In this document: piece after piece, positions 270 through 15,035 of the stretch
How positions within the stretch are numbered: position 1 is the first letter of the stretch
Layout: each line of letters begins with the position of its first letter
Assembly: GCA_963715925.1 (NCBI GenBank)
Contig: OY970282.1
Coordinates: 365,891-429,890, forward strand
DNA from: an uncultured Solirubrobacterales bacterium
GTDB lineage: Bacteria > Actinomycetota > Thermoleophilia > Solirubrobacterales > Solirubrobacteraceae
Direction: 5' to 3'
Length of the DNA: 64,000 bases
The notes under the pieces: model-generated
Database searches by the model: none
What the model was told of the DNA's origin: nothing
Seen by the model: the letters and a program-made list of their open reading frames with translations, nothing else
Program-made: the position numbers and the translations under genes

Positions 270-842
270 ATGCCTACGGAGCGGTTCATCGATTTGACCG
301 AGATCGCGGCAGACCAGTTTGGCTTGATCACTATCGATGACGCCCACGGGGTCGGCTACCAGCCCAAGACGCTCGCCAAGCTCGCCAGCCGCGGGCAGTT
401 GGAGCACGTCAGCCGAGGGGTCTACCGAGTCCCGTTCCTGCCCAGCGGGCAGATGGCGCCCTACATGGCCGCCACACTATGGCCCCAGGGCACCCGGGGT
501 GTACTCACGCACGAGACGGCGCTCGACCTGTGGGACGTCAGCGACGTCAACCCCGCGAAGATCCACATCGCCGTCCCACGTACGCACCGCCCCCAGCGAC
601 AGGTTCCCAAGGCGTACGTGATCCACCGCGAAGACCTCGACCCAGATGAGATCACCGCGATCGAGGGAGTCCCGGTCGTCAAGCTCGCATGCGCGCTGCA
701 CCAGTGCGCGCAGGCTCACCTCGCGCGCGATCTGCTCGATCAGGCCGTACGTCACGGCCGCAGCCGCGGGCTGCTAGGCGCCGATGAGCACGCCGCGCTC
801 GTGCGCGAACTCGATCTGGAAAGGGTCGGCGGGCGAGCATGA
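270..842 (+). CDS. Type IV TA AbiEi-family antitoxin (Rv1044/MenA3-like)
   Basis: N-terminal wHTH (QFGLIT...LEHVSRGVYR), LTHETALDLW, KIHIAVP, EGVPV. Confidence 0.85.
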   Translation: MPTERFIDLTEIAADQFGLITIDDAHGVGYQPKTLAKLASRGQLEHVSRGVYRVPFLPSGQMAPYMAATLWPQGTRGVLTHETALDLWDVSDVNPAKIHIAVPRTHRPQRQVPKAYVIHREDLDPDEITAIEGVPVVKLACALHQCAQAHLARDLLDQAVRHGRSRGLLGADEHAALVRELDLERVGGRA

Positions 843-1516
843 GCGATAGCGACGCACCCAAAACCCCCGATCTGCGCTCCGATCTTGCCCGCGCGGCACA
901 GATGACCGACGTCGTTGAACGCACGCTTGAAGTCGTCGCGTTGATCGAGGCTGTTGCGGCGCCATTCGGTATCCACCCGGTCGTTGTCGGAGGCATGGCC
1001 GTCTACTTCTGGGTTGAGAGCGAGGCATTCCTGACCTACGACATCGATGTCGTAATGGAAGTCCCCGCCGAGCTCGACGCGAAGCTGGCTGAACTCGGGT
1101 TCGCGCGCGCCCCAGACGGTAGGCACTGGGAACTCCCAGGCACCGAAGTCTTCTTCGAGGCGCCGAGCGCTAATCTGGATCCAGATGTCGTCGTGGCCGA
1201 GGTCGAGTTGCCATCGGGCCGAACGGCGAAGGTCCTCTCGCGTGTCGACGTGCTCATTGACCGCCTCGCCGAGTTCCAAGCAATGGGCCACCAGATCATC
1301 GGACAGCAGGCGCTCATGCTCCTATCCGGCATCTCCGATGACGAAGCTCACGACCTCGACGCGCGAGCCTCCAGCCATCGCGTGGGAACCATTCTCAAGG
1401 CCCTGCGTGACCTCGCCAATGACCTCGCGGCAGGCCGCGAAACGCCGGAGAGCGACGAACTGCACGACATTGCCAGTGCAGCACTCGAAGCCGAGTACTC
1501 TCCAGAGAAGCCATGA
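839..1516 (+). CDS. Pol-beta-superfamily nucleotidyltransferase, probable TA toxin
   Basis: VVVGGMAV...TYDIDVV (GG...DxD) motif. ATGA overlap with the antitoxin stop. Confidence 0.7.
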   Translation: MSDSDAPKTPDLRSDLARAAQMTDVVERTLEVVALIEAVAAPFGIHPVVVGGMAVYFWVESEAFLTYDIDVVMEVPAELDAKLAELGFARAPDGRHWELPGTEVFFEAPSANLDPDVVVAEVELPSGRTAKVLSRVDVLIDRLAEFQAMGHQIIGQQALMLLSGISDDEAHDLDARASSHRVGTILKALRDLANDLAAGRETPESDELHDIASAALEAEYSPEKP

Positions 1517-1772: not shown

Positions 1773-4700
1773 TCACGACCGTCGCCGGTACACCTCGCCG
1801 GGGCGCCGGTCGAGGTTGAACACATCGAACACCTTCGCTAGTCCTGCACCAGTCATCATTGCCCCATCGAGCCACGGGTCCACATCGGCTAGGGGGTGCA
1901 CTATGACCAGCAGCTCGTCGCTTCCGCCCACCTCGTGGCGCCCCGTGCTAAGCACCGGCTGCAGTCCGTCGTCGACTATCTCCCACCCGAAGTCGCGTTG
2001 GACTCCCCGGAGAGCGGCCGCCCGGATTCCTTCCCACCGATCGCGGGTCGGCGCGCCGTGCAGCAGAACTTCAAGGGTGTCAGCCGCAAGCCGCCAGTCG
2101 AGCAGTGGATGGAAGCGGAGATTAGAGAAGTCACGCAGGCACCGTGGGCATGACGCCTCACAGCCGTGGTCGCTGCCCTCCCAACGCTCATGGATCATGC
2201 ACTCCGTCTCAACTAGCAGTTCCTCAAAGTGCTGACGCTCGGCGAGCCATGTGACGAAGCCCGCACCATTCTCGATGGCATCCGCCAGGAACACCTCGGG
2301 GATGAATGCACGCACCGCCGTGGACGCAGCGTCGTCGCGCAGCATACGTAGGCCCGTCTCAAGCTCGCGGGGCTCTATGTCGAGAGTCACGGCAGCCCGG
2401 ACACGCAAGGCGAACCCGAGGCTTGTCCATGCTGCGCGCCGCGCAACGCTCAGCAGTCGCGCGCGCGGCCCGGACTGGGGATACAGGAGATGGCTGTGAC
2501 CATCATGTTGCTTGCGGGCCGGCTGCGCGACGACCGTATCGGTCTTCCACATCGCCCCAAGCACTAACTGCTGCTCGGAGCCCGATCGCACCTTGCTCGA
2601 CATGGTCACAGGGTCTAACCACCCCTCGCCGGGCTCGTTGGCAGCGGCCAGCTCAAAGCCCGCGCCCCCGCGGTCATTCACCGAGTAGATCTCCGAGTTG
2701 CCCGACGCGACCCGGAGACCGCCAGTCACGTGCCGATTCCCCAGAGAGGGAGTTACAAGCTTCGGCGATGACGCGCGCGAAAGGCGCTGTGTGACACCCT
2801 CGTATGGCTCCGCATCGTGAAACCAGCTAGTGCGGAAGCCGGTCGGCCGGGCCATAAGCTGGATACGGTAATGCTGCGGGTCACGCTCCCTGCACTCGGA
2901 GCAAACCGGATTTACCGGGTCGGGATGCAGATCGATGGTCTTGCAGGTTTCACACAGGCCGACCGATACCGTGGGCCCGCGCCCATCCAATGGCTCTGGC
3001 TGCCTGCTGCCCATCGGTCGGAAGCCCGCGAGGCCCACAACCGTATAGACCAGCTTGTCGAGCACAATCTCGTTCCCGATCGCGAACTCCGACACAGCCA
3101 CGCGCAGGTCGCGGTCGATTGCCCCTGGCGGTGGCCAATTACGTGAGTACTGCGGCGCCCGCGTGAACAGATAGCGAACCTGCGTCGGGAACCCGTACAT
3201 CGGCAAGAGTCCGTGCTCGGCCAGTCGCTGGGAAAGATCCGGCGCCTCGTCCACCAGGGCGGCCAAATGCGTGATCCGTGCCCCGAGACCATCGAGCGCC
3301 CCCTCAACAAGTTCCGCGGGGGACTTTGCGACGCGAGTAAAGTGGCTGATCTTGGCCGTGAACTCCTCAAGGGAGTCGCGGATCGCCTCGATACGCTCGA
3401 CGATCTGCCTGGCATGGACTGGCCAATGAGACGCGTCACCGAAGTGCCCATGCACGTTGAAACCGGCCTCGTCCCACCCAGTCGTCTCCTCGAGCCACGC
3501 GAAGGCACACCGCAGCGCCTCGGCACGGATGACGCGATGGAAGATCGGCTCGGAGTCTGATACGAGATACGGCGCGGGAGGCGCCGCCGCTGTCATCTCC
3601 TCGGGTGCACCGAAGTAATACTGGTCGTGCGTACGGTCGCGACAGACGGTGACAGCCAACGAGAGCGGATTATCACGCCGGCCGGCGCGGCCAACACGCT
3701 GCTGGTAGTTGTGGCGCTGGGGCGGCATGTTGCCTAGCAGGACAGCCAGTAGGTTGCCGATATCGACGCCGGCCTCCATCGTCGTTGTAACCGAGAGCAT
3801 GTCGATGCCGTTGGGTCGTGGCGGCTCGTTGCGTAGGAAGATGTCCTGAAACAGCGCCTGGCGCTTCTGGGACCGCGTCCGACCTGTCTGCCCCGTTAGC
3901 TCCTCTACCGCGAGCCGAATGACCGGCCGCTTCTCGTGCGCCAGGCGGGCGTAGTAATCGTCGGCGAGTCCGTCACGCGGGATCTTGGCATCGTCGCCAA
4001 GCGAGCTGAGACAGTGCTGGCAGACGCCTGCGTTGCCGTGCAGGTGCGCCCATCCGCAGCGCAGGCATCGCCAAGCGTACTCCACGTCGTGGCGGCGAAT
4101 GACCAGCCGGTCCAGAGCGAGCACCCAGCGTGGCGCTGGCTGCGCAGGGTCGTTGGGAAGGCTGCGTCGCGCCCAGTCGATGATGTCGTCGTAGCTGCTG
4201 TCATGGGTGGCGCAGACCTTCCTCAGCCACGATGCCAGCTCAGCTGGTGGCCCCCTGTGGACATCGCGCCCATCGCGGCCGCGCTGGTAGAAGCGGTGAA
4301 GGGAGAGGTTGCGCAGCGCGCCCCACACGACCTCCTGTGCGATCAACTCGTCGCCAAAGCCTGGCGGCGGCGTCACCTCGTGACCTGAGGCGGGTACGAC
4401 AAACCCGAAGCCAAGGGACTCGATGTCTCGCCCACCACCGGCAAAGACCGCCTTTGCGAGCTGAGCGACGGTCTGCACGTATAACGCGTCGATCTGATCC
4501 CGTGCCCGCGGATCCTCGTCACGCCGCCGTGGAGGCGACGGGGGCTCGGTGGGTGTATCGGCTGGCCATTCGAAGTGCTTCCACCAGTCGTCATCGCTGC
4601 CGTCGGACGGACGACCGGCCGGCCCTGCCGGGTTGCGGCCGATATTCACCAGATCGTTGAATACGCGCTGCCCGATCAGTGCCAGCGGCGCGTCGCCGGC

Positions 4701-7289
4701 CAGCGCCTGATCGCGGCTGGCCTCGATGCGGCGGATCTCCTCCGGATTGTCGAACACCCCGTCGTGGAGGTCCTGGAGTTGGCGCAGCAGGGGATGGCCA
4801 TCGTGGCGCAAGCGGCGCACCGTTTGCAGTTGCTCAGGATCGCGGGTGTCCAACCAGTGCAGATAGGTACGCAGGTCGTCGACGAAGGAGGTTGCCCGCT
4901 CGATCTCATGCACAACGAGTTGGCGCACCGCGTCGCGGTAGTGCGCGGTGTCCATCCCACCCGCGAGCTTGGCGGCGTCCTGACGACTGTCGCTAAATGC
5001 GATCAACCCGCGGTTGGGTTGCCCTGCGGGATAGATGCGGTGTAGTACCTCCTCCGCGAGGATCTGGCTGACGCGGTCGGCACTGGCTCGCATGCCCCAG
5101 ATCGGTGAGCGCATGCGGCGCGGGCTGGTCACGGGCAGCGCCCGCGCCGCTCCCCGAGGAACGCTGGATTTCTCCCAGTCGTCGTTGCAGTTGGGGCAGT
5201 GCGTAGGGATACCCGGGATGACCTCCAGTCGGCCGTCGCTGCCGCTGCCGCGCGGAGCGCGGATTACGTACTGCCATCCTGTGCGTTGCTCATCGAGGAG
5301 GCCACGTACCTGCCCGGCACCCGGTACGAGCACCGCCTCCACGAACGCGAACGTGAACCCGAGGTGACCCCAGGACGCCTCGATGGGTGTCTTGTCCGGC
5401 CCGGACGGCCAGTAGACCTTGTAATTGCTGTAGGTCTGGTCCGCATAGCTGCGGTCTGGGACATCCTCGAAGTTCGGGACATCGGGCAGCAGGTCGAACC
5501 CGCCGCCACGGTCGGCATCGGCGCGTGCTGCGTAGCCGCCGAGCAGGACGTCGCCACACGTCTGGCAGCACAGGAGATCGAGCACGCGCGCGCCACACTC
5601 GCACCGGATCCGCGGCTGCGCGTATAGCTTGCCGATCCTGCGATCCGCGTCCTCGAACTGCCTGTCGATCTCCGAGCAGGCTGGGTCGCAGCAAGCCCAC
5701 CAACCTGTTCCGGTGCGAAAGAAGTAGTGCGCGCGAACGTTTGGACCGTTGCCCGCAGCCATTGCCGACAGCACTCCCGTGAGCACGTGGCGCGCCTGCG
5801 GGTCGTCTGGCCGCAGGCGCTCGGCAAGCTCCTCAGCACTCGTGGCCAGAATGGCATTTCCCGTCCGGCATGCGGTGCTCACCACGTCGCCGAGCGCGGT
5901 CGTGCCAAGTTGCGCCGCGTCACTGCTGTCGCCGCCTGCCGCGACGCGTCGGCCGAGGTCAGCAAGCTGCGCCGCCTGGTCGTCATCGATCGTGGAAGCC
6001 GCTACGTCGGGCGGGAGCACCTGCCGGCCACTGAGAACCTCGAAGCGCGTGCGGTCGCGACCAAAGAACTCCTGCAAATAGTTCTTGATGTCGTCTACCT
6101 CGGCACCCAGCGACGCGCTGGCGCCAATCACAGTCAGCTGGCCATCTTGTACGTCGATGCGGTCGAGCAGCTTGCGCAACAGTAGCCCGACCTCCGTGCC
6201 GGCGGTGCCCCGGTAGGGATGCAGCTCATCGACCACAAGGAAGAAACGGTGATTACCCCGGTCGGCGTCGAGGTATCGACGCGTCTGCTCGAAGATCTCG
6301 GCCTCGTCGCGACGCATCAGCATTACGTTGAGCATCGAGAAGTTGGTGATGAGGATGTCCGGGGCGTGGTTCTTCATCTCGGGGCGCGACAGCTGCTCGG
6401 CCCCGAGAGGGCGGGGCACATACGGGCGATAGCGCCCGAGCAGCCCTGGCTCCATTCCTACCTCCTGCTCCCGCTCGGCGGTGAGGCGGTCCCGCGCGGC
6501 CGCGCTGTCCCATAGATCCTGTGCGTCGCCGTAGAAGCTCTTCAGATCCTTGTCGGGGGTCTGCCCGGTATAGCGCCCGAAGGTGAAGCGGTGGCCGTGG
6601 CGCTCGCGATTCATCCACGCTTCAGCGTGGTCGGAGTCCAACGTTGCGCGAAGTCGCACGATCTGGTCCTCGACGAGGGCATTCATCGGATACACCACCA
6701 GAGCACGCATGCCTGGATCACGGCCCGTCTCATCCTTGCGGGCCGGACGGAAGCGCCCACTCCCGCCGCGCCACCAAGCGGTTGGGGTAGCCGCCCCTGG
6801 TAGCCAGGCTCGCGACTCTCCGACCAGTTGGGTAAGTACCGGAAGCCAGAATGCCTCCGTCTTGCCCGAGCCAGTGCCACCCGTCACCACCACATCGCGG
6901 CCGTTGAGCGCATGGCGGAGACTGTCCCACTGGTGGGCGTAAAGCTTGTTCTCACCCATGAGCGGCCCGAGCAGCTCGGCAGCGTCCTCCGCCACTCCAG
7001 GTTCCAGCCCGAGGTCAGGGTGGCGGAGCGCGTCGGCAAGGCTCAGCTCGCTTGAGACGAACCCCGGAACCGGCTCGATCAGCGTCGCCGAGGCCAGCTG
7101 CTCGCCAGCCTCCAGCAGTGCGCGCCGCTCGCGGTCAACACCCCGATTGCTGACCGCGTAGTTGGACACGTAGAAATTGCGGTAGTTCTGTGTCAGCTCG
7201 TCGGCAAGAACCAGTGGGTTGGGCGGCATCACTGATCTGGGCTCGCGGCCAACGGCAATGGCGGCGTCGATCGAGTCGGCGAGCGTCAT
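1773..7289 (-). CDS. 1838-aa SF2 DExH helicase with Zn-binding inserts and C-terminal DUF1998-like domain (Druantia DruE-like)
   Basis: Q motif LYAHQ, Walker A GGTGSGKTE, Ia YPMNALVEDQ, II VVDELH, IV AFSDSRQDAA, V TTTMEAGVDIG, VI YQQRVGRAGR. Several CxxC pairs. Terminal CEASCPRCLRDFSNLRFHPLLDWRLA. Confidence 0.85.
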   Translation of the reverse strand: MTLADSIDAAIAVGREPRSVMPPNPLVLADELTQNYRNFYVSNYAVSNRGVDRERRALLEAGEQLASATLIEPVPGFVSSELSLADALRHPDLGLEPGVAEDAAELLGPLMGENKLYAHQWDSLRHALNGRDVVVTGGTGSGKTEAFWLPVLTQLVGESRAWLPGAATPTAWWRGGSGRFRPARKDETGRDPGMRALVVYPMNALVEDQIVRLRATLDSDHAEAWMNRERHGHRFTFGRYTGQTPDKDLKSFYGDAQDLWDSAAARDRLTAEREQEVGMEPGLLGRYRPYVPRPLGAEQLSRPEMKNHAPDILITNFSMLNVMLMRRDEAEIFEQTRRYLDADRGNHRFFLVVDELHPYRGTAGTEVGLLLRKLLDRIDVQDGQLTVIGASASLGAEVDDIKNYLQEFFGRDRTRFEVLSGRQVLPPDVAASTIDDDQAAQLADLGRRVAAGGDSSDAAQLGTTALGDVVSTACRTGNAILATSAEELAERLRPDDPQARHVLTGVLSAMAAGNGPNVRAHYFFRTGTGWWACCDPACSEIDRQFEDADRRIGKLYAQPRIRCECGARVLDLLCCQTCGDVLLGGYAARADADRGGGFDLLPDVPNFEDVPDRSYADQTYSNYKVYWPSGPDKTPIEASWGHLGFTFAFVEAVLVPGAGQVRGLLDEQRTGWQYVIRAPRGSGSDGRLEVIPGIPTHCPNCNDDWEKSSVPRGAARALPVTSPRRMRSPIWGMRASADRVSQILAEEVLHRIYPAGQPNRGLIAFSDSRQDAAKLAGGMDTAHYRDAVRQLVVHEIERATSFVDDLRTYLHWLDTRDPEQLQTVRRLRHDGHPLLRQLQDLHDGVFDNPEEIRRIEASRDQALAGDAPLALIGQRVFNDLVNIGRNPAGPAGRPSDGSDDDWWKHFEWPADTPTEPPSPPRRRDEDPRARDQIDALYVQTVAQLAKAVFAGGGRDIESLGFGFVVPASGHEVTPPPGFGDELIAQEVVWGALRNLSLHRFYQRGRDGRDVHRGPPAELASWLRKVCATHDSSYDDIIDWARRSLPNDPAQPAPRWVLALDRLVIRRHDVEYAWRCLRCGWAHLHGNAGVCQHCLSSLGDDAKIPRDGLADDYYARLAHEKRPVIRLAVEELTGQTGRTRSQKRQALFQDIFLRNEPPRPNGIDMLSVTTTMEAGVDIGNLLAVLLGNMPPQRHNYQQRVGRAGRRDNPLSLAVTVCRDRTHDQYYFGAPEEMTAAAPPAPYLVSDSEPIFHRVIRAEALRCAFAWLEETTGWDEAGFNVHGHFGDASHWPVHARQIVERIEAIRDSLEEFTAKISHFTRVAKSPAELVEGALDGLGARITHLAALVDEAPDLSQRLAEHGLLPMYGFPTQVRYLFTRAPQYSRNWPPPGAIDRDLRVAVSEFAIGNEIVLDKLVYTVVGLAGFRPMGSRQPEPLDGRGPTVSVGLCETCKTIDLHPDPVNPVCSECRERDPQHYRIQLMARPTGFRTSWFHDAEPYEGVTQRLSRASSPKLVTPSLGNRHVTGGLRVASGNSEIYSVNDRGGAGFELAAANEPGEGWLDPVTMSSKVRSGSEQQLVLGAMWKTDTVVAQPARKQHDGHSHLLYPQSGPRARLLSVARRAAWTSLGFALRVRAAVTLDIEPRELETGLRMLRDDAASTAVRAFIPEVFLADAIENGAGFVTWLAERQHFEELLVETECMIHERWEGSDHGCEASCPRCLRDFSNLRFHPLLDWRLAADTLEVLLHGAPTRDRWEGIRAAALRGVQRDFGWEIVDDGLQPVLSTGRHEVGGSDELLVIVHPLADVDPWLDGAMMTGAGLAKVFDVFNLDRRPGEVYRRRS

Positions 7290-8191
7290 GCGGTGGTCTG
7301 GTTAAGGGTACTGGAGATGGCCGTAGCGAGATCGTTGGGAACATTGACATATTGATCGACACCCGCGTCGACGGCCGTGGGAACATCGGCCGGCATACGT
7401 CCTGAGCACAAGCATGCTGCCCGGGCGTGCAGCGCAGGCAGTGGTGCGCGACGGTCGACGAGCAGCTTGGACTCTGCTGGCTCATATGTGATGAGTGGGT
7501 CCAGTTCCCGGTCGCGCTTCAAGAGATATGGGCCCCACTCAGGCGCAACGAGACGCCGCCACTCTCCCCCATGGAGGAGCCAGCCCTCGCGTCGGCGACC
7601 GTGAGTCTCCCAGCGCCACAGCCCACTGGTGCTCTCGGGCACATCGGGATCGGCCCACCGGGGACGCAGGTCGGCCGGGTCAATCAGGCAGTGCGCAAAG
7701 CGGTCGTCGGGCCACGCCGTCTCGGAGACCTCATCCACCCGTGCAGAGGGAAGCATCTGCCCCAAACGCAGCGCCGCGTCGGCCGTCAGCGGGATCCCAG
7801 CCGCGGCGGCAAGATGCGGCGCATCCTCGGGGTTCACCTGCAGTAGCACGGTGCTCGGCCCACGGTCCTGCGCTACGGGATCGTCGAGCTCGGCGTCGAT
7901 GTCAGCCGCGATGATGACTGCGTCGAGCTCGTGCAGCAGCCCGGCGGGACGGGCGCCGGTCAGCAGCAAACGTCCCGGAAGGCCTGGGATAGAGACCAGA
8001 CACGTCGCCGCGGTACTAAAGCGACTGGAGCCCCAATCCCACTCGACGTGGGCCAGTTGGCTCAGCGCCCGCGCCGCCGGCCCTGGCTTCAGCCCGAGGT
8101 ACCGACAGCCATCCGCGAACTGCTTGTGCGTTCCAGATCCGAGCTCCGAAACCCAGATCAGCAGCATGTCGTAGACGTCAGCCTTGGGCAT
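7286..8191 (-). CDS. Hypothetical 301-aa accessory protein of the helicase operon
   Basis: Start re-called to ATG 8191 (MPKADVYDMLLIWVSELGSG), overlapping the upstream stop by 14 bp. Its stop overlaps the helicase ATG (ATGA). Confidence 0.75.
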   Translation of the reverse strand: MPKADVYDMLLIWVSELGSGTHKQFADGCRYLGLKPGPAARALSQLAHVEWDWGSSRFSTAATCLVSIPGLPGRLLLTGARPAGLLHELDAVIIAADIDAELDDPVAQDRGPSTVLLQVNPEDAPHLAAAAGIPLTADAALRLGQMLPSARVDEVSETAWPDDRFAHCLIDPADLRPRWADPDVPESTSGLWRWETHGRRREGWLLHGGEWRRLVAPEWGPYLLKRDRELDPLITYEPAESKLLVDRRAPLPALHARAACLCSGRMPADVPTAVDAGVDQYVNVPNDLATAISSTLNQTTA

Positions 8192-10160
8192 CCGAGCTCT
8201 CATAGATAGCTCGGCCCAGCAGACGCACCCAGGCAGTACCGCCGCTTTTGTCTGCGGTGCGGTCAGCGACTTCGCCGTTCTCGTAACTGGCGATGAGGTC
8301 GAGCAGCGACTCGGATGGCTCGACGTCAACATCGGCGTAGCACACAATCTGGGCATGTCGGCCGCGTAGCAGGACATACGCGATGTCCTCAGGCCGTGGT
8401 AGCTCCCACGGCTCACCCGTGCCGATGCCCATGCGCCGATGCCAACCATCCTCGAGCGGCGGCCCGCAGGTGGTCCATGTTCCGTCGCGAAAGATCACAT
8501 CGACGAGATCCTGGTGGCGGGTCAGGAGCGATGAACGCCATGGATGATCTTCACCATCGTTGATGATCGTCGCGCCGCGGATCTTGGGTCCGCCTTCGTC
8601 GCCACGACACTGCGATGTCGCCGACGCCTTGGCCCACACTTGCCCTGCGGGCAGCCAGTGGTAGGCATCTGTGCCCTTGCGTGGACCATGCTCAGCAAGC
8701 TCGATGGTCTGCTCCCACACGTCGCCGACGGCAATGTGATGCACACCCCGGTCGGCGACGGCGGGGCGAAGGTCGAAAGGCACGCCGGGCAGCGCCTCGC
8801 CGCACTCGACGCCGTCGACCTCCACACGCGCCGGCTCGCCCAGCTCCGAAAGCAGCGCGGGCGGGTGATCGGCGAGGTAGGCACCAAAGTTCAGCGGCAG
8901 ACCTCCGACAAGGCGCACCTCCTCGACGTCCTCCGCGGGATCCGCCGAGCGCAGATGGGTCGGCAGGCCGTCCGGGTCGACCCCGAACGCCAACTGCCAG
9001 CCATGCGGCAACGGCGGTCCGCTCATCCCATCCTCCCGCGCGTTCGCGAGCAGCGTAGCGTCGCATGTCAGCACTGCCACTATCTCCGAGGTCGCTGCCG
9101 GGACGCGCCTCAGGCCCGCATCGGAGCCCTCAAAGAGCGTCGTGGTGCCCGGTAGGACGCTCACCCGCGCGCGCCGATGCGTGAGACTGATGGATACCGG
9201 GCCGAGCGTCGCCTTCTCGAGCCAGGTAAGCGGGACGCCGAACTCCTGGCCACCGCCGGGCAGCACGAGCGGGCCGTCGGGCCCGTCGGCTACAGCATCC
9301 TCGTCGAGCCCAGGCACCACCAGCCGCAGCGCGACGCGCGGACCCATGATGCGCAGATACAGATCGGCATCGAGGTGGCAGTATCCGTCCTCGTCCAGCA
9401 CGGCACCGTCCCACGCGGTCATGGCACTGCGCAGCGCGGCACGCATGACGTCCTCGAGCTCAGAGTCCTCGAGCTTTTCGCGAGTGGGCGTTGTCAGCAT
9501 GGATGCGTAGCCCCACCGGCGCAGCAGCCGTACAGGATCGTGCCCAGCCTCGAGTGCTGGTCGTGCACTGCGGAAGAAGCGGCCCAGCAGCGCACGGTCC
9601 CGGCCGCGCAGCGGCGCTTGGCCGATCGCCACACCCACAACGCTCAGGTTGCGCGGCGGCTCGCGCAGCACCAGCACGCCGCGCCTGCCCCCCTTCTCAA
9701 CTGCTAGCCAGTCCTGCAGGTCAGCGAAGAACGTCATGAGCATCTCGAAACCCGCAACACCAGGCCACTCGTCCCGCTTGGGTATGTCGAAGATGTCGCA
9801 TAAGCGCGTGTAGTAGGAGTTGGTCGATATGTTCTCGTCGCGGTCCATGCGGCTGGCCGCAACGACCGCCAACGCCAGGCCCGACATGAAGCTGGGCAGC
9901 GGGCGTGGGCGCGAGAGCCGCCTCCAGCGACGGCCGTGGTTGACGATCCCGCGGACGCCGCCCTCGAATGTGATCTCGTAAGAGCCCTTCAGGCATTCCG
10001 CAAGCGCCGTGACCGCATCCCCTCGAATCTCAAGCCGTGCCGCCGCATGTTCGACAGCGAGGTCATCGCAGGAAAGCAAGACAGAAAACAGGCCCTCGAT
10101 TTGGCGCTCGGGTAGTAGAAGGTCCAGGAGCGCCGCGTTCCAGTCCTCAACGGTAGCCAT
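8178..10160 (-). CDS. Hypothetical 660-aa accessory protein (helical N-terminus, beta-rich C-terminal half)
   Basis: Start re-called to ATG 10160 (MATVEDWNAALL), in a TGATG overlap with the nuclease stop. N-terminus LALAVVAASRM...NSYYTRL...DRALLGRFF. Confidence 0.75.
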   Translation of the reverse strand: MATVEDWNAALLDLLLPERQIEGLFSVLLSCDDLAVEHAAARLEIRGDAVTALAECLKGSYEITFEGGVRGIVNHGRRWRRLSRPRPLPSFMSGLALAVVAASRMDRDENISTNSYYTRLCDIFDIPKRDEWPGVAGFEMLMTFFADLQDWLAVEKGGRRGVLVLREPPRNLSVVGVAIGQAPLRGRDRALLGRFFRSARPALEAGHDPVRLLRRWGYASMLTTPTREKLEDSELEDVMRAALRSAMTAWDGAVLDEDGYCHLDADLYLRIMGPRVALRLVVPGLDEDAVADGPDGPLVLPGGGQEFGVPLTWLEKATLGPVSISLTHRRARVSVLPGTTTLFEGSDAGLRRVPAATSEIVAVLTCDATLLANAREDGMSGPPLPHGWQLAFGVDPDGLPTHLRSADPAEDVEEVRLVGGLPLNFGAYLADHPPALLSELGEPARVEVDGVECGEALPGVPFDLRPAVADRGVHHIAVGDVWEQTIELAEHGPRKGTDAYHWLPAGQVWAKASATSQCRGDEGGPKIRGATIINDGEDHPWRSSLLTRHQDLVDVIFRDGTWTTCGPPLEDGWHRRMGIGTGEPWELPRPEDIAYVLLRGRHAQIVCYADVDVEPSESLLDLIASYENGEVADRTADKSGGTAWVRLLGRAIYESSDAQG

Positions 10161-13075
10161 CAGCCTGCGAGCTCGGGCACCCAGGGCGTCTGGCGTTGCA
10201 GGCTGTGGGCGGTCGCATGTTGGTCCTTGAGGTTCTGGTCGATCCAGGTCGCGAGCTCGCGTTGCGCGGCGGGCTCCCCGTGCACGATCCCGAATACCGT
10301 CGCATCGTGCGCTCGCGTCATACGCTCGGCGAAGGCGTGTAGATCGGACGTCGGTGCGTGCGCTGAGAGGCCAACGCGCTGGAATAGACACTTGATCTTC
10401 GGGTTCTCGTCACCGAGGCGGATCGTGTCGCCAGTCGTGAGCCGATTGATGCCTGGAATGCCACCGGCAGCACGAGGCATGTAGCCGGTGAAGACAACTC
10501 CGTGCTGCTTGTGGCGTACCATCTCGCGCAGGAAGGCGCGCGACCAGCCTCCAGACAGCATCGCGGGACTGGCGATGATGTAACCCGGCTTCTCACTGCT
10601 GAGGATGTCCAGTATGGCTTCATCGAGCGTCCCGCTGTTGGAGAGCCACTCGTTGGGGTTGCGGACGGAGGGAAACGACCCGATGGCAGCCCAGCCACCG
10701 TTACGGGCCTGGCTGTATTGGTCGTAGACATCCATGATCTTGTTACCCATGCCCGCAACATAGAGTGGCCCGTCGGGCATCTCGCGGCCGCGTCGGGCCT
10801 CGATAATCTTCACCAACTCCTGTGTACGCCCGAGGCTGAAGCTGGGCAGGAGCAGGAACCCCCCCTCTCCAACCGTCTTCATCGCGTAGTCCGAGAGGCG
10901 CTGGGCAGCCTGCTCGCGACCATGAAGATTACGGCGACCCTGTTGCAGCATCTGGTCCGGTACGCCGTAGGTCGACTCCATGATCACCAAGTCGGCGAGC
11001 TCGATCTCGTCTAACCCCCACGTCGGGAGAGTGTGCTGGGGGTCCGCGATCGGGCCTAGGTCGCCTGTGTAGAGCAATGTGTGGCCCGACTCCTCCTCGG
11101 TAACGTGGATCGCGCAGCTACCGAGTACGTGTGCGACGGGCAGGTAGCGGACGAGCAGAGTTGTATCCCCTACGCGGAACTTGGCGCCCTTCTCGGCTGG
11201 CCGGACGCGCTCCATGATGTTCTTGACGTCTTGCTGCGTATACGCCGGCCGCATGGAGCCCTCGTAGTAATCAGAGTCCGACACCGCCATCGCCGTCATC
11301 CGCTCCTCGCGGGAATGCTGGATCTTCGCCGAGTCCAAGAGCATGATCTCAGCCAGCTGGATGGTGGGCGGGGACATCCACACCGGGACGTCGCGCTCAG
11401 AGGTGGCCTCCAAAGCGTCCAGGATGGTCGGCAGCGAGCCGACGTGGTCGACATGAGCATGACTGATCAGCACGCCGTCGAGCGCCTCGGTGGGCACGCG
11501 AAAGTGGAAGGGCTGAGCGTTTGGGTCGCCGTACTCCCCCTTGACTCGCTGGCCGGCATCCAAGAGTACGCTGTAGCCGTTGTGGGTTTGGACGAGGATC
11601 GCGCTTCCCCCAACCTCCTCAGCACCACCTAGGGCACGGATCGTGAACGGCTGGCTGTGTCGGCGGGTCCGCCGCCGGCGCGGCCGCGATGCCTCGGCCG
11701 GTTCCGATTGATCCGCTATCGTAGCGGCCTCCTCGGCCGCACTGTCAGGGGGTTGAGGCGTCGCCTCGTCGATCTCCGGAGTGGCGATCTCCGCCACCTT
11801 CGCGACGGGGATCTCGGCGGCGCCGCCGGGGACAGCCGGCACTGGTGTGACCGCCTGGCTGAGTTCGCTGAATACAGCGGTCAGCCGCAGCAGGTGTTGG
11901 TCGTCTGGCAGCGCTGCGCCCGACGCGATGCGTTCAGCCGCCATGGAAGTCGCCTGGCCGACGACAGGAGCAAGTGCGCGGAATAGAGAGTGGGGGGAGT
12001 CGACCGGCAGCAGTTCCTCGGGGCCAGTCGGGCGCGCGCGCTGAGACTGGCTGATCTGTCGCAGGCGCTCCGCCTGGCGATCGGCCTGCTCTTGCGCCTC
12101 GAGGCGCAAGCGGCGCTCACCGTCGCGCTCGGATCGCAGCTCGTCCAGGTCAGCCTGGAGGCGATCCATCTCCCCAGCGCGCTCCTCCAGCTCGCGCAAC
12201 CGCTCGCGGTCGGCCTTGGCGGCACTGAGTTGGCCATCCAACGAGGCGATCCGCTTTGCGTTCTCGGCCAGCTTGGCCCGCGCTCCCGCCAGCTGAGCGT
12301 CGGCGTCTCCGGCACGCTGCTGAGCGGTTTCGAGCTCATTCAAGGATGCCTCCAGCGTGCCGACCTTCTTCTCGGCAGCAGCGAGTTGCTTGTCGCGATC
12401 CTTAATATCGCGCTCGAGTGCCTTGACGAGCTCCTCGAGCCCATGGATTCGGTGGCGCTCGGCATCCTCGTCCTCTGTGCCATCGCCTCCGCGCGCGGCA
12501 AGCCGCTCGGCAAGCTCGTCCTCGATTAGTTCGAGCTCCTCCCGGTCATTCGTGTGCAGCATGTACACCGCGGCGGCCACGAACTCCTCGGGGCAGGCGG
12601 AGCGGGAGTCAAGGAACGCGGCGGGATCATCGGCAAGCGCCACCAGCGTCGCATCCGCAATCCGCGCTTTGCGGTTGTCGTAGTGATGGAGCACCGACTG
12701 CAGTGCGATGTCCCACAGCGTACGCTCGCGGCGCAGCAGCTGGGCGAGCGCGCGAGCGGTCTGGCTCGACGGTCCGTAGTTAGCCTTGCGGGTCACTCCC
12801 GCGCGGATGAGCAGGCGCCGCTGAGTCGAGCGGTCCAGTCCAGTGCGCCAGGCTTTCTTCGCGGCTGGGAGGACGGCAATGTGCCGCAGCACCGTGTCGG
12901 GGATCTCGTCAGGGGCCGGCGTGTCGGGCTGAAACTTCTCGAGGTGCTCGCGAAGATCGGCAGCGCGAGCGACTATGTCGCTATCGACGTTTCCGTTGCG
13001 ACCACCGGCCGGCGGCGCATCCGAGGTCGTAGTAGTCAGGTCGTCTCGCTCGTGGAGAGTCACTTCACAGACCAC
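10160..13075 (-). CDS. beta-CASP metallo-beta-lactamase-fold nuclease (CPSF73/YSH1-like) with N-terminal helical domain and long coiled coil
   Basis: LGGAEEVGGS, LLDAG, SHAHVDH (HxHxDH), AHVLGS, YTGD, MESTYG, SFSLGRTQE, LSAHA, IVHGE. About 150 residues of heptad-like E/K/R/A/L sequence. GTG start uncertain. Confidence 0.88.
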   Translation of the reverse strand: MVCEVTLHERDDLTTTTSDAPPAGGRNGNVDSDIVARAADLREHLEKFQPDTPAPDEIPDTVLRHIAVLPAAKKAWRTGLDRSTQRRLLIRAGVTRKANYGPSSQTARALAQLLRRERTLWDIALQSVLHHYDNRKARIADATLVALADDPAAFLDSRSACPEEFVAAAVYMLHTNDREELELIEDELAERLAARGGDGTEDEDAERHRIHGLEELVKALERDIKDRDKQLAAAEKKVGTLEASLNELETAQQRAGDADAQLAGARAKLAENAKRIASLDGQLSAAKADRERLRELEERAGEMDRLQADLDELRSERDGERRLRLEAQEQADRQAERLRQISQSQRARPTGPEELLPVDSPHSLFRALAPVVGQATSMAAERIASGAALPDDQHLLRLTAVFSELSQAVTPVPAVPGGAAEIPVAKVAEIATPEIDEATPQPPDSAAEEAATIADQSEPAEASRPRRRRTRRHSQPFTIRALGGAEEVGGSAILVQTHNGYSVLLDAGQRVKGEYGDPNAQPFHFRVPTEALDGVLISHAHVDHVGSLPTILDALEATSERDVPVWMSPPTIQLAEIMLLDSAKIQHSREERMTAMAVSDSDYYEGSMRPAYTQQDVKNIMERVRPAEKGAKFRVGDTTLLVRYLPVAHVLGSCAIHVTEEESGHTLLYTGDLGPIADPQHTLPTWGLDEIELADLVIMESTYGVPDQMLQQGRRNLHGREQAAQRLSDYAMKTVGEGGFLLLPSFSLGRTQELVKIIEARRGREMPDGPLYVAGMGNKIMDVYDQYSQARNGGWAAIGSFPSVRNPNEWLSNSGTLDEAILDILSSEKPGYIIASPAMLSGGWSRAFLREMVRHKQHGVVFTGYMPRAAGGIPGINRLTTGDTIRLGDENPKIKCLFQRVGLSAHAPTSDLHAFAERMTRAHDATVFGIVHGEPAAQRELATWIDQNLKDQHATAHSLQRQTPWVPELAG

Positions 13076-13344: not shown

Positions 13345-13408
13345 TGTCCGCGATCCGTCGCCAGCTCGATCATCGCAAAAGGTACCGATTTCTAGGCAAT
13401 TCCTGAAG

Positions 13409-13482
13409 GGTGAGCGAGGGGACTCGAACCCCCGACCGCCGGGACCACAACCCGGAGCTCTACCAGCTGAGCTACGCCCACC
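13409..13482 (-). tRNA. tRNA-His (GTG); CCA not encoded
   Basis: Reverse complement GGTGGGCGTAGCTCAGCTGGTAGAGCTCCGGGTTGTGGTCCCGGCGGTCGGGGGTTCGAGTCCCCTCGCTCACC shows G-1, C73 discriminator, D-loop AGCTGGTA, anticodon loop TTGTGGT and T-loop TTCGAGT. Confidence 0.97.
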
Positions 13483-14752: not shown

Positions 14753-15035
14753 GGACGGAACCTCGGCGGGACCTCGGCTGGCCGGCGTCCCCGCACGGCG
14801 GCGCGTCGTCGGGACGGAACCTCGGCGGGACCTCGGCTGGCCGGCGTCCCCGCACGGCGGCGCGTCGTCGGGACGGAACCTCGGCGGGACCTCGGCTGGC
14901 CGGCGTCCCCGCACGATGGCGCGTCGTCGGGACGGAACCTCGGCGGGACCTCGGCTGGCCGGCGTCCCCGCACGATGGCGCGTCGCCGGGACGGAACCTC
15001 GGCTAGCCGGCGTCCCCCACGGTGGCGCGTCGTCG
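14753..15035. repeat. 59-bp intergenic tandem repeat: 4 full copies plus 1 internally deleted copy
   Basis: Unit GGACGGAACCTCGGCGGGACCTCGGCTGGCCGGCGTCCCCGCAC(GGC/GAT)GGCGCGTCG(T/C)CG starts at 14753, 14812, 14871, 14930 and 14989. Confidence 0.95.

Follow-up and report, generated by a model that had tools for sequence, protein, structure and literature searches.

The DNA analysed here, called the window throughout, is a stretch of 64,000 nucleotides (nt) from an uncultured Solirubrobacterales bacterium (contig OY970282.1, positions 365,891 to 429,890), and its subject is an operon of four genes in which a β-CASP nuclease gene stands in front of three Druantia genes. All four genes lie on the minus strand and overlap at each junction, by 1, 14 and 4 bases, according to the list of open reading frames (ORFs) and a base-by-base reading. 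Gene 1 (10160-13075, minus strand) encodes a coiled-coil β-CASP nuclease of 971 amino acids (aa) from a GTG start. It is followed by gene 2 (8178-10160, minus strand), which encodes DruF4 (660 aa) when the internal ATG at 10160 is taken as the start, gene 3 (7286-8191, minus strand), encoding DruL4 (301 aa), and gene 4 (1773-7289, minus strand), encoding DruE4 (1838 aa). The first junction reads GGC-TGA/ATG-GCT, with a single A in common at 10160; the second, ATGCCCAAGGCTGA, is an overlap of 14 nt at 8178-8191, and the third is an ATGA overlap of 4 nt at 7286-7289. The four-gene arrangement is not a product of chance, since the identical order, with overlapping or near-abutting junctions, is found in six further independent loci. 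A scan for promoters and terminators was uninformative, giving 0 promoters and one terminator-like site, below the mean of shuffled sequence.

The type IV Druantia core

By their profile matches, genes 2 to 4 are the trio catalogued as Druantia type IV (DruE+DruF+DruL), which was defined in 2021 by Payne et al., with 168 RefSeq instances in 11 phyla (PMC8565338). The DruE4 model of PADLOC (PDLC00051) matches gene 4 with E=0 and 1544 bits over profile positions 8-1821 of 1829, followed by DruE2 as second best (1387 bits), DruE1 (583 bits) and DruE3 (at most 385 bits). Gene 3 is matched by DruL4 (PDLC00057; 4.5e-39, profile positions 3-304 of 309) and also by the final, C-terminal stretch of the long DruF2 model (positions 959-1028 of 1030), while on gene 2 the DruF4 (PDLC00052) and DruF2 models tie, both at 1.1e-33. 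No methylase or DruG model of Pfam or PADLOC matches any of the four proteins. An origin of genes 2 and 3 from a split DruH was considered and ruled out, as PADLOC returns DruF4 and DruL4 and no DruH.

These results bear on an earlier note on this DNA, made from its letters alone. The note had described four co-oriented, overlapping genes, and both its coordinates and its description proved correct when the ORFs and junctions were reread; its assignment of the operon to Druantia is likewise borne out by the DruE4, DruF4 and DruL4 scores. The two proteins that it called unknown are identified by PADLOC as DruF4 and DruL4. Its list of Druantia partners covered types I-III only, and the combination DruF4-DruL4-DruE4 was already catalogued as type IV (PMC8565338). 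The proposal of an undescribed defence system therefore fails for the three-gene core and leaves only gene 1 as new, in the role of an accessory. When each protein is compared with the PADLOC defence models, genes 2 to 4 match the catalogued type IV and gene 1 matches none: the only models returned for it are LmuB, JetC and DruC, at E 4e-4 or weaker and all on residues 200-348, which is noise from a coiled coil that SMC models also match. The statement that a β-CASP protein lies outside the described Druantia parts thus stood. No paper linking Druantia with β-CASP was found in the searchable literature; the papers that name both Druantia and metallo-β-lactamase (MBL) make no link between the two.

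DruE4 is a YprA-like DExH helicase of superfamily 2, with the Pfam domains DEAD and Helicase_C, and the sole motor of the operon. Pfam and NCBIfam return generic helicase domains only, and DUF1998 (PF09369), which is on record for some homologues, gives no score at E <= 0.1. Its motifs include Walker A GSGKT (K143), DELH (354-357) and QRVGRAGRR (starting at 1197), accompanied by several Cys4 zinc knuckles and, at the end of the protein, by a DUF1998-like Cys/His cluster of H1708/C1710/C1714/C1717; in an alignment of 16 diverse homologues, the helicase motifs, the Cys4 knuckles and the terminal cluster are all invariant.

DruF and DruL have no match in Pfam or NCBIfam, and when their profiles were run on PDB sequences, no hit had an E below 0.1. 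The AlphaFold2 (AF2) model of DruF, with a pLDDT score (predicted local distance difference test) of 84.9, is composed of a helical N-domain, tandem immunoglobulin (Ig)-like β-sandwiches and a C-terminal helix, and a Foldseek search of the PDB matches it only to arrays of Ig or bacterial Ig-like (BIg) domains. The model of DruL (pLDDT 94.6) is a compact α/β structure whose N-terminus resembles a winged helix-turn-helix (wHTH); Foldseek finds nothing better for it in the PDB than E 0.017 with a template modelling (TM) score below 0.2, and only for local wHTH- or ACT-like pieces. No enzyme fold was recognised in the predicted structures of either protein, and DruF4 would be a non-enzymatic partner. 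The identification of DruF as a McrB-like ATPase and that of DruL as a McrC-like nuclease were both rejected: the models are confident, but Foldseek shows only Ig arrays in the first case and only the local pieces in the second. Druantia I and II have been read as Type IV CoCoNuT (Bell et al. 2025; PMC12458937). With regard to the criterion for that type, an inactivated McrB-like CnuB AAA+ GTPase homologue with a coiled coil, neither the AF2 model of DruF nor that of DruL, compared by fold with the PDB, matches an AAA+ or McrB protein, and the long coiled coil of the present operon is found in the β-CASP protein only.

Several related loci (numbered with L) carry, in the position of DruF and DruL, a single ORF of 1023-1138 aa that ends at the start of druE (L026, L027, L039, L060, L078 and L087). 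Judged from their length and position, these ORFs are apparently DruF-DruL fusions, in agreement with the match of DruL to the C-terminal end of DruF2. If the fusions are real, the separate DruF4 and DruL4 would represent the split form of a long protein of the DruF2 type. Because they appear to be fused in some relatives, DruF and DruL probably act as one functional unit.

The β-CASP nuclease and its linkage to Druantia

The product of gene 1 begins with a helical domain (residues about 35-190), delimited by alignment and conserved architecture, which is followed by a coiled coil of ~160 residues (about 195-345), a conserved helical segment (about 355-405), a disordered Arg-rich linker and, at residues 478-960, the MBL/β-CASP/RMMBL nuclease. 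On the C-terminal 490 residues, three Pfam models pass their cut-offs: Lactamase_B_2 (3e-13), Beta-Casp (9.5e-12; 45.9 bits, where 27.7 are required) and RMMBL (4.9e-8). Motifs 1-4 and A-C are intact (D506, H539xH541xD543H544, H649, D672, E700, H906 and H932) and are conserved in 16 family members; from the conservation of all seven motifs, the nuclease looks active. The best NCBIfam matches are aCPSF1 (TIGR03675; 6.5e-51) and the type VII Cas14 (NF045584; 3.2e-50), both far under their equivalog cut-offs. The nearest solved structures, at 1e-16 to 3e-29, are PH1404 aCPSF1, TTHA0252 of Thermus, FttA, CPSF73/Ysh1, INTS11 and Cas14, all of which cut RNA; among the PDB sequence matches at E <= 1e-5 there is no SNM1/Artemis protein. 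The β-CASP protein is the only recognisable nuclease of the operon, DruF and DruL being predicted to have no enzyme fold. For types I and II, DruE has been reported to contain no nuclease domain other than an inactivated, Vsr-like one, and for type III an active phospholipase D (PLD) domain (PMC12458937). If the report on the dead domain of types I and II holds for the present DruE, the β-CASP protein would be the sole nuclease of the operon.

The association of this nuclease with Druantia was followed in three sets of sequences: a word-based search with the nuclease, which found 15 full-length relatives; a DruE-based sample of 80 loci from one-genome-per-species contigs, whose 10-kb flanks were searched by tblastn with the window proteins; and DruE homologues from metagenomes, 49-55% identical, which were examined through their gene tables. 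DruF and DruL are present in most of the 80 loci, and in only two of them did tblastn find a β-CASP gene directly upstream of druF, namely L008, from a Thermoleophilaceae metagenome-assembled genome (MAG), and L011, from a Solirubrobacterales MAG. The metagenomic gene tables added four more loci with four genes (L089, L090, L122 and L123). The order β-CASP-DruF-DruL-DruE is therefore shared by the window, L008, L011, L089, L090, L122 and L123; their flanking genes differ each time, and their junctions range from an overlap of 22 nt to a gap of 26 nt. A maximum-likelihood tree built from 86 DruE proteins places the seven β-CASP-positive loci, together with L009 and L088, in a single clade (support of 100 in the Shimodaira-Hasegawa-like approximate likelihood ratio test, SH-aLRT). 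The contigs of L009 and L088 end upstream of the operon, so that these two are excluded from the count. The nuclease gene is present in all judgeable loci of this clade (7/7) and in none outside it, including the sister clade (L010, L012 and L124) and more than 70 other loci; L124, for instance, a 46% DruE homologue, has DruF-DruL-DruE and no β-CASP gene. Within the clade the gene persists even where DruE identity has dropped to 49% and where the surroundings are unrelated. The identities of L008 to the window proteins are 48% for β-CASP, 35% for DruF, 42% for DruL and 54% for DruE, that is, the four proteins have diverged from those of the window to similar degrees. The earlier note had asked whether this gene is co-conserved with the other three and recurs beside DruE-like genes across genomes; it does so in these seven loci, the window included, and within a single clade of DruE.

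Within the RecA1 insertion region (residues 245-295), the DruE proteins of the β-CASP-linked clade have ten extra residues, DRLTAEREQE (267-276, at about 6462-6491), which are missing in the sister clade and in most other DruE compared. The insertion may be a candidate contact site for the coiled coil of the nuclease. A wider argument for a docking site from clade-specific DruE indels was abandoned as too little, since they amount only to this insertion and to gaps of 6 and 7 columns.

Upstream of druF, this operon family has an accessory slot of variable content: a methylase occupies it in a type II-like clade, and the β-CASP gene in the clade of the window. The methylase, a C5 cytosine methylase that matches DruM2, lies directly upstream of druF in L049, L055, L062, L067, L071 and L073, which belong to a large related clade. 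L063 aside, no conserved large gene was recognised in this slot in the other loci inspected, namely the sister clade and some further ones. In L063, from Kitasatospora, a 1529-aa AAA_22/AAA_16 ATPase with WD40-like repeats (STAND-like; positions 2093-6682 of the locus) stands upstream of druF and may be another occupant of the slot.

Beyond the operon, the nuclease defines a small family. A search with the N-terminal helical domain returned 24 representatives among 1.84 billion proteins, and every full-length match carries the same β-CASP core, by which a modular adaptor used on other effectors was ruled out. The longer β-CASP proteins have an additional domain at the N-terminus, for which Pfam gave no match. 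In a quick tree of the catalytic domain, rooted on a long branch, the family is set apart (support 100) from the β-CASP proteins of 460-570 aa that are common in the class, at ~30% identity. It divides into three groups: that of the window, a long-branched and Druantia-linked group (L008, L011, L089 and L090), and a short-branched, Druantia-free group with a LuxR-type neighbour, the last two being sisters in this tree. A close nuclease occurs in 1 of 25 genomes of the host genus and in 2 of 301 genomes of the class, the class search having been made with the nuclease domain alone. The contexts seen number 12, of which 7 are complete four-gene operons, 2 are decayed and 3 are free of Druantia. 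In L007, whose nuclease is 85% identical to that of the window, the same TGATG junction leads into a druF remnant of 47 codons and then into unrelated DNA; this locus formerly had the operon and has since lost druF-L-E. L133 carries β-CASP, DruF and a truncated DruL, with no DruE in its last 0.9 kb. In L005 (9293-12700) and L006 (5083-8488), the coiled-coil β-CASP gene and that of an atypical LuxR/GerE-type regulator together make up a unit of two genes, in a neighbourhood conserved in Solirubrobacter-like genomes (a histidine kinase, a response regulator and a STAS-PALP enzyme); these regulators have no counterpart in the Druantia-linked loci.

The island around the operon

Upstream of gene 1 lies a tRNA-His gene (GUG anticodon; 13408-13481, minus strand; ARAGORN), the integration site of an island. 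A direct repeat of 45 base pairs (bp), equal to the 3' part of the tRNA, is found at 13407-13451 and again, in a perfect copy (45/45), at genome positions 362795-362839, 3.05-3.10 kb to the left of the start of the window (window positions -3096 to -3052). The two copies bound an island of 16.5 kb that holds the operon. The G+C content is 64-69% over the first 1-14 kb of the window, 69-77% from there to about 54 kb and 64-68% at the far end. The island also holds two overlapping genes, an AbiEi_4-type antitoxin (270-842, plus strand; Pfam E 1e-10) and a DUF6036-like nucleotidyltransferase (839-1516, plus strand; 22 bits, under the cut-off of 23.6), which are probably a toxin-antitoxin or abortive-infection pair of the AbiE type. 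No empty tRNA-His site could be shown in relatives, in which the left flank is non-syntenic and lies 0.25-1 Mb from tRNA-His. Many genomes of the genus (G002, G003, G004, G006, G007, G009, G011 and G013) carry partial copies of the tRNA-His 3' end 2-35 kb from the tRNA, so that this gene is an integration hotspot in the genus; G002 and G006 have two extra copies each, and the repeated copies imply different or tandem islands.

Two of the related loci have mobile surroundings of their own. In L123 (1-2243 and 16431-19188), the four genes lie between inverted cassettes of DUF5372, DUF6788 and a large serine recombinase, near IS110- and Mutator-type transposases, a setting which suggests that the four-gene module moves as a unit in a composite mobile element. 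In L124 (1-6743 and 16015-21918), the type IV operon follows HsdR, a YgjP-like gene and GmrSD and precedes DUF932, ParB and a TrwC relaxase; this is a defence island on an element resembling a plasmid or an integrative and conjugative element (ICE).

Just past tRNA-His, the window has 4.3 head-to-tail copies of a 59-bp unit, with 98% identity, at 14753-15003. They lie inside a high-G+C ORF of 1084 aa on the minus strand, which may be spurious at the repeat, since 59 cannot be divided by 3. The repeat is not a CRISPR array, as it has no spacers, and no such array is present in the first 20 kb, where the two repeats detected are both head to tail and spacer-free.

Proposed function and comparison with known systems

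The four genes probably constitute an anti-phage operon that is mobile and belongs to the Druantia II/IV family, with the β-CASP protein as an added nuclease effector. In one branch of DruE4, the nuclease gene would have been added in front of druF. DruF and DruL would serve as a non-enzymatic sensor or scaffold that senses infection or holds the complex on its substrate, and DruE would load on phage nucleic-acid intermediates and translocate, steps that have been shown for type III DruE only, with a preference for 3'-tailed DNA (bioRxiv 10.64898/2026.05.12.724681). The β-CASP protein, tethered or dimerised through its coiled coil, would then act as the nuclease. Its substrate would rather be RNA, either phage transcripts or bulk RNA, the latter leading to abortive infection; the main alternative is single-stranded DNA (ssDNA) unwound by DruE. 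RNA is slightly favoured, because the near relatives are all RNases and the RMMBL domain is present, and an RNase causing abortive infection, as the earlier note had thought possible, appears plausible from these relatives. The ssDNA option is kept, because both proteins weakly resemble the Lhr and β-CASP repair pair.

Several observations weigh against this proposal. The nuclease gene of L007 is intact despite the loss of druF-L-E; L005 and L006 (55-68% identity) have theirs on the chromosome behind a LuxR-type regulator gene, with no Druantia genes; and L132 carries the nuclease alone. From these four loci, the nuclease can persist without the helicase, and, given its Druantia-free relatives, it may be self-sufficient; we infer its dependence on the DruE helicase. 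Conversely, the nuclease gene is missing from the sister clade and from the majority of type IV loci, which means that the type IV core does not need it. That the C-terminal domain of the present DruE would be catalytically dead is taken over from a preprint on types I and II. No integrase was recognised among the scanned ORFs of the island, a scan that bears on its left 3 kb. Finally, no experiments on Druantia type IV were found in the searchable literature, in which the term is used only by PMC8565338 and one review, so that the defence role of the core rests on homology and would follow from that of the tested types I-III.

In the first alternative, the β-CASP protein degrades the ssDNA that DruE spools, the two proteins forming a helicase-nuclease that destroys phage DNA directly. 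Some β-CASP proteins of the RNase J/CPSF type cut ssDNA in vitro as well. Gene 1 has a weak match to the ligase-associated β-CASP exonuclease (TIGR04122; 5.7e-7), as gene 4 has to its partner helicase (TIGR04121; 5.8e-10), and type III DruE has been reported as a helicase-nuclease acting on DNA intermediates that contain ssDNA (bioRxiv 10.64898/2026.05.12.724681). However, the match to TIGR04122 reaches 28.6 bits where the cut-off is 325, the strong matches of gene 1 are all to RNA-cutting enzymes, SNM1/Artemis proteins are missing among its matches at the threshold given above, and RMMBL, the 'RNA specificity' domain, passes its Pfam cut-off. Direct destruction of phage DNA is thus conceivable, though rather unlikely.

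The second alternative is that the β-CASP protein is an independent neighbour, a single-gene defence or RNA-processing enzyme that was captured once beside Druantia IV and is connected with it by linkage only. The loci without Druantia and the surviving nuclease of L007 speak in its favour, as does the tree, in which the Druantia-free group lies amid the Druantia-linked groups on short branches, in the manner of vertical inheritance; the N-terminal domain, never seen on another effector, gives no sign of a modular adaptor. It is hard to reconcile, however, with the retention of the gene in all seven judgeable loci of the clade, to 49% DruE identity and in unrelated surroundings, with junctions that overlap or leave at most 26 nt in all cases, with the similar divergence of the four proteins, and with a position that is the same slot as that of DruM in type II. 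An independent neighbour is accordingly judged unlikely. As a special form of the effector proposal, the β-CASP protein might be an RNA effector coupled to transcription: DruE would track phage DNA, and wherever it runs into RNA polymerases or pushes them off, the tethered nuclease would cut the nascent phage transcripts, a version held to be improbable. A DNA-repair or RNA-metabolism helicase-nuclease module that merely resembles Druantia, for which the repair functions of the YprA/MrfA and Lhr relatives of DruE (PMC12458937) and the absence of type IV experiments from the literature searched might be invoked, is very improbable in view of the end-to-end matches to the DruE4, DruF4 and DruL4 models, the low-G+C tRNA island with its attachment-site repeats and adjoining AbiE-like pair, the very patchy distribution in genus and class, the relatives that adjoin HsdR/GmrSD on an ICE-like element, as in L124, or are flanked by recombinase cassettes, as in L123, and the YprA tree, whose defence branch includes the DruE family (PMC12458937).

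Read as a Druantia operon with an added nuclease effector, the locus can be compared with several known systems. With Druantia type IV it shares the three matched models, the gene order and orientation, and the lack of DruM and DruG; it differs in that type IV is defined by three genes, whereas the window and one DruE4 clade are headed by a fourth, for a coiled-coil β-CASP protein. What is new is this four-gene form of the catalogued type IV and not a new system, as the three-gene core was already known. Druantia type II reportedly has the composition DruM-DruF-DruG-DruE (Doron et al. 2018). It resembles the present operon in DruE2, the second-best model for gene 4, in the equal scores of DruF2 and DruF4, in the match of DruL4 to the end of DruF2 and in an accessory gene upstream of druF; that gene encodes, however, a C5 cytosine methylase, while the operon of the window has a nuclease and no methylase. 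Sister systems with a nuclease, without one and with a methylase in the same slot constitute a natural experiment. Druantia type III (DruH-DruE) also relies on a giant YprA-like helicase with nuclease activity, but there a PLD domain within DruE is combined with DruH, whereas here the β-CASP protein is separate and accompanied by DruF and DruL, and the DruE3 model scores at most 385 bits. We came upon no mechanism for types I, II and IV of Druantia in the literature searched, and we know of none; a branch with a separate, apparently active nuclease may offer a handle on the effector step of the Druantia II/IV family. The family is rare, and the practical weight of the finding is limited, since the hosts are mostly uncultured Thermoleophilia.

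The combination of a helicase with a separate nuclease has parallels elsewhere. Hachiman HamAB is likewise a two-protein machine of this kind, with families that are unrelated or distant. The ligase-associated repair operon of Lhr and β-CASP presents a similar pair, but the window proteins stay far below its models (37.5 bits against 850 for TIGR04121, and the score given above for TIGR04122), and no ligase gene is present among the scanned ORFs of the island. The CPSF73, aCPSF1 (FttA) and TTHA0252 enzymes have the same MBL, β-CASP and RMMBL core with all seven motifs and provide the best PDB and NCBIfam matches of gene 1. Nevertheless, gene 1 reaches only 173 bits on aCPSF1 (TIGR03675), whose cut-off is 580, matches it in the core alone (profile positions 168-625) and has no KH domains; it differs from the whole CPSF73/aCPSF1 branch in its unique helical domain, its ~160-residue coiled coil and its setting in a defence operon. 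The nuclease defines a rare protein family, in which helical domain, coiled coil and β-CASP form a constant architecture. To our knowledge, 'cleave and torpedo' chemistry has so far been described for the archaeal FttA and the eukaryotic CPSF73 and INTS11, and an immune role of such enzymes only for type VII CRISPR. If the β-CASP protein does cut transcripts, it would represent a bacterial immune use of this termination chemistry and the first form of Druantia with a defined RNA-directed effector. The closest parallel in function is Cas14 of type VII CRISPR-Cas, in which a β-CASP protein is the immune effector against RNA and which gene 1 matches in NCBIfam (NF045584, the E value given above). 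The two are nonetheless distinct: the match reaches 171 bits against a cut-off of 800, the neighbours are Druantia and not cas genes, and the partner is a helicase rather than a CRISPR RNA (crRNA) complex. The present operon would stand for a second immune recruitment of a CPSF73-type β-CASP in prokaryotes, after that of type VII CRISPR.

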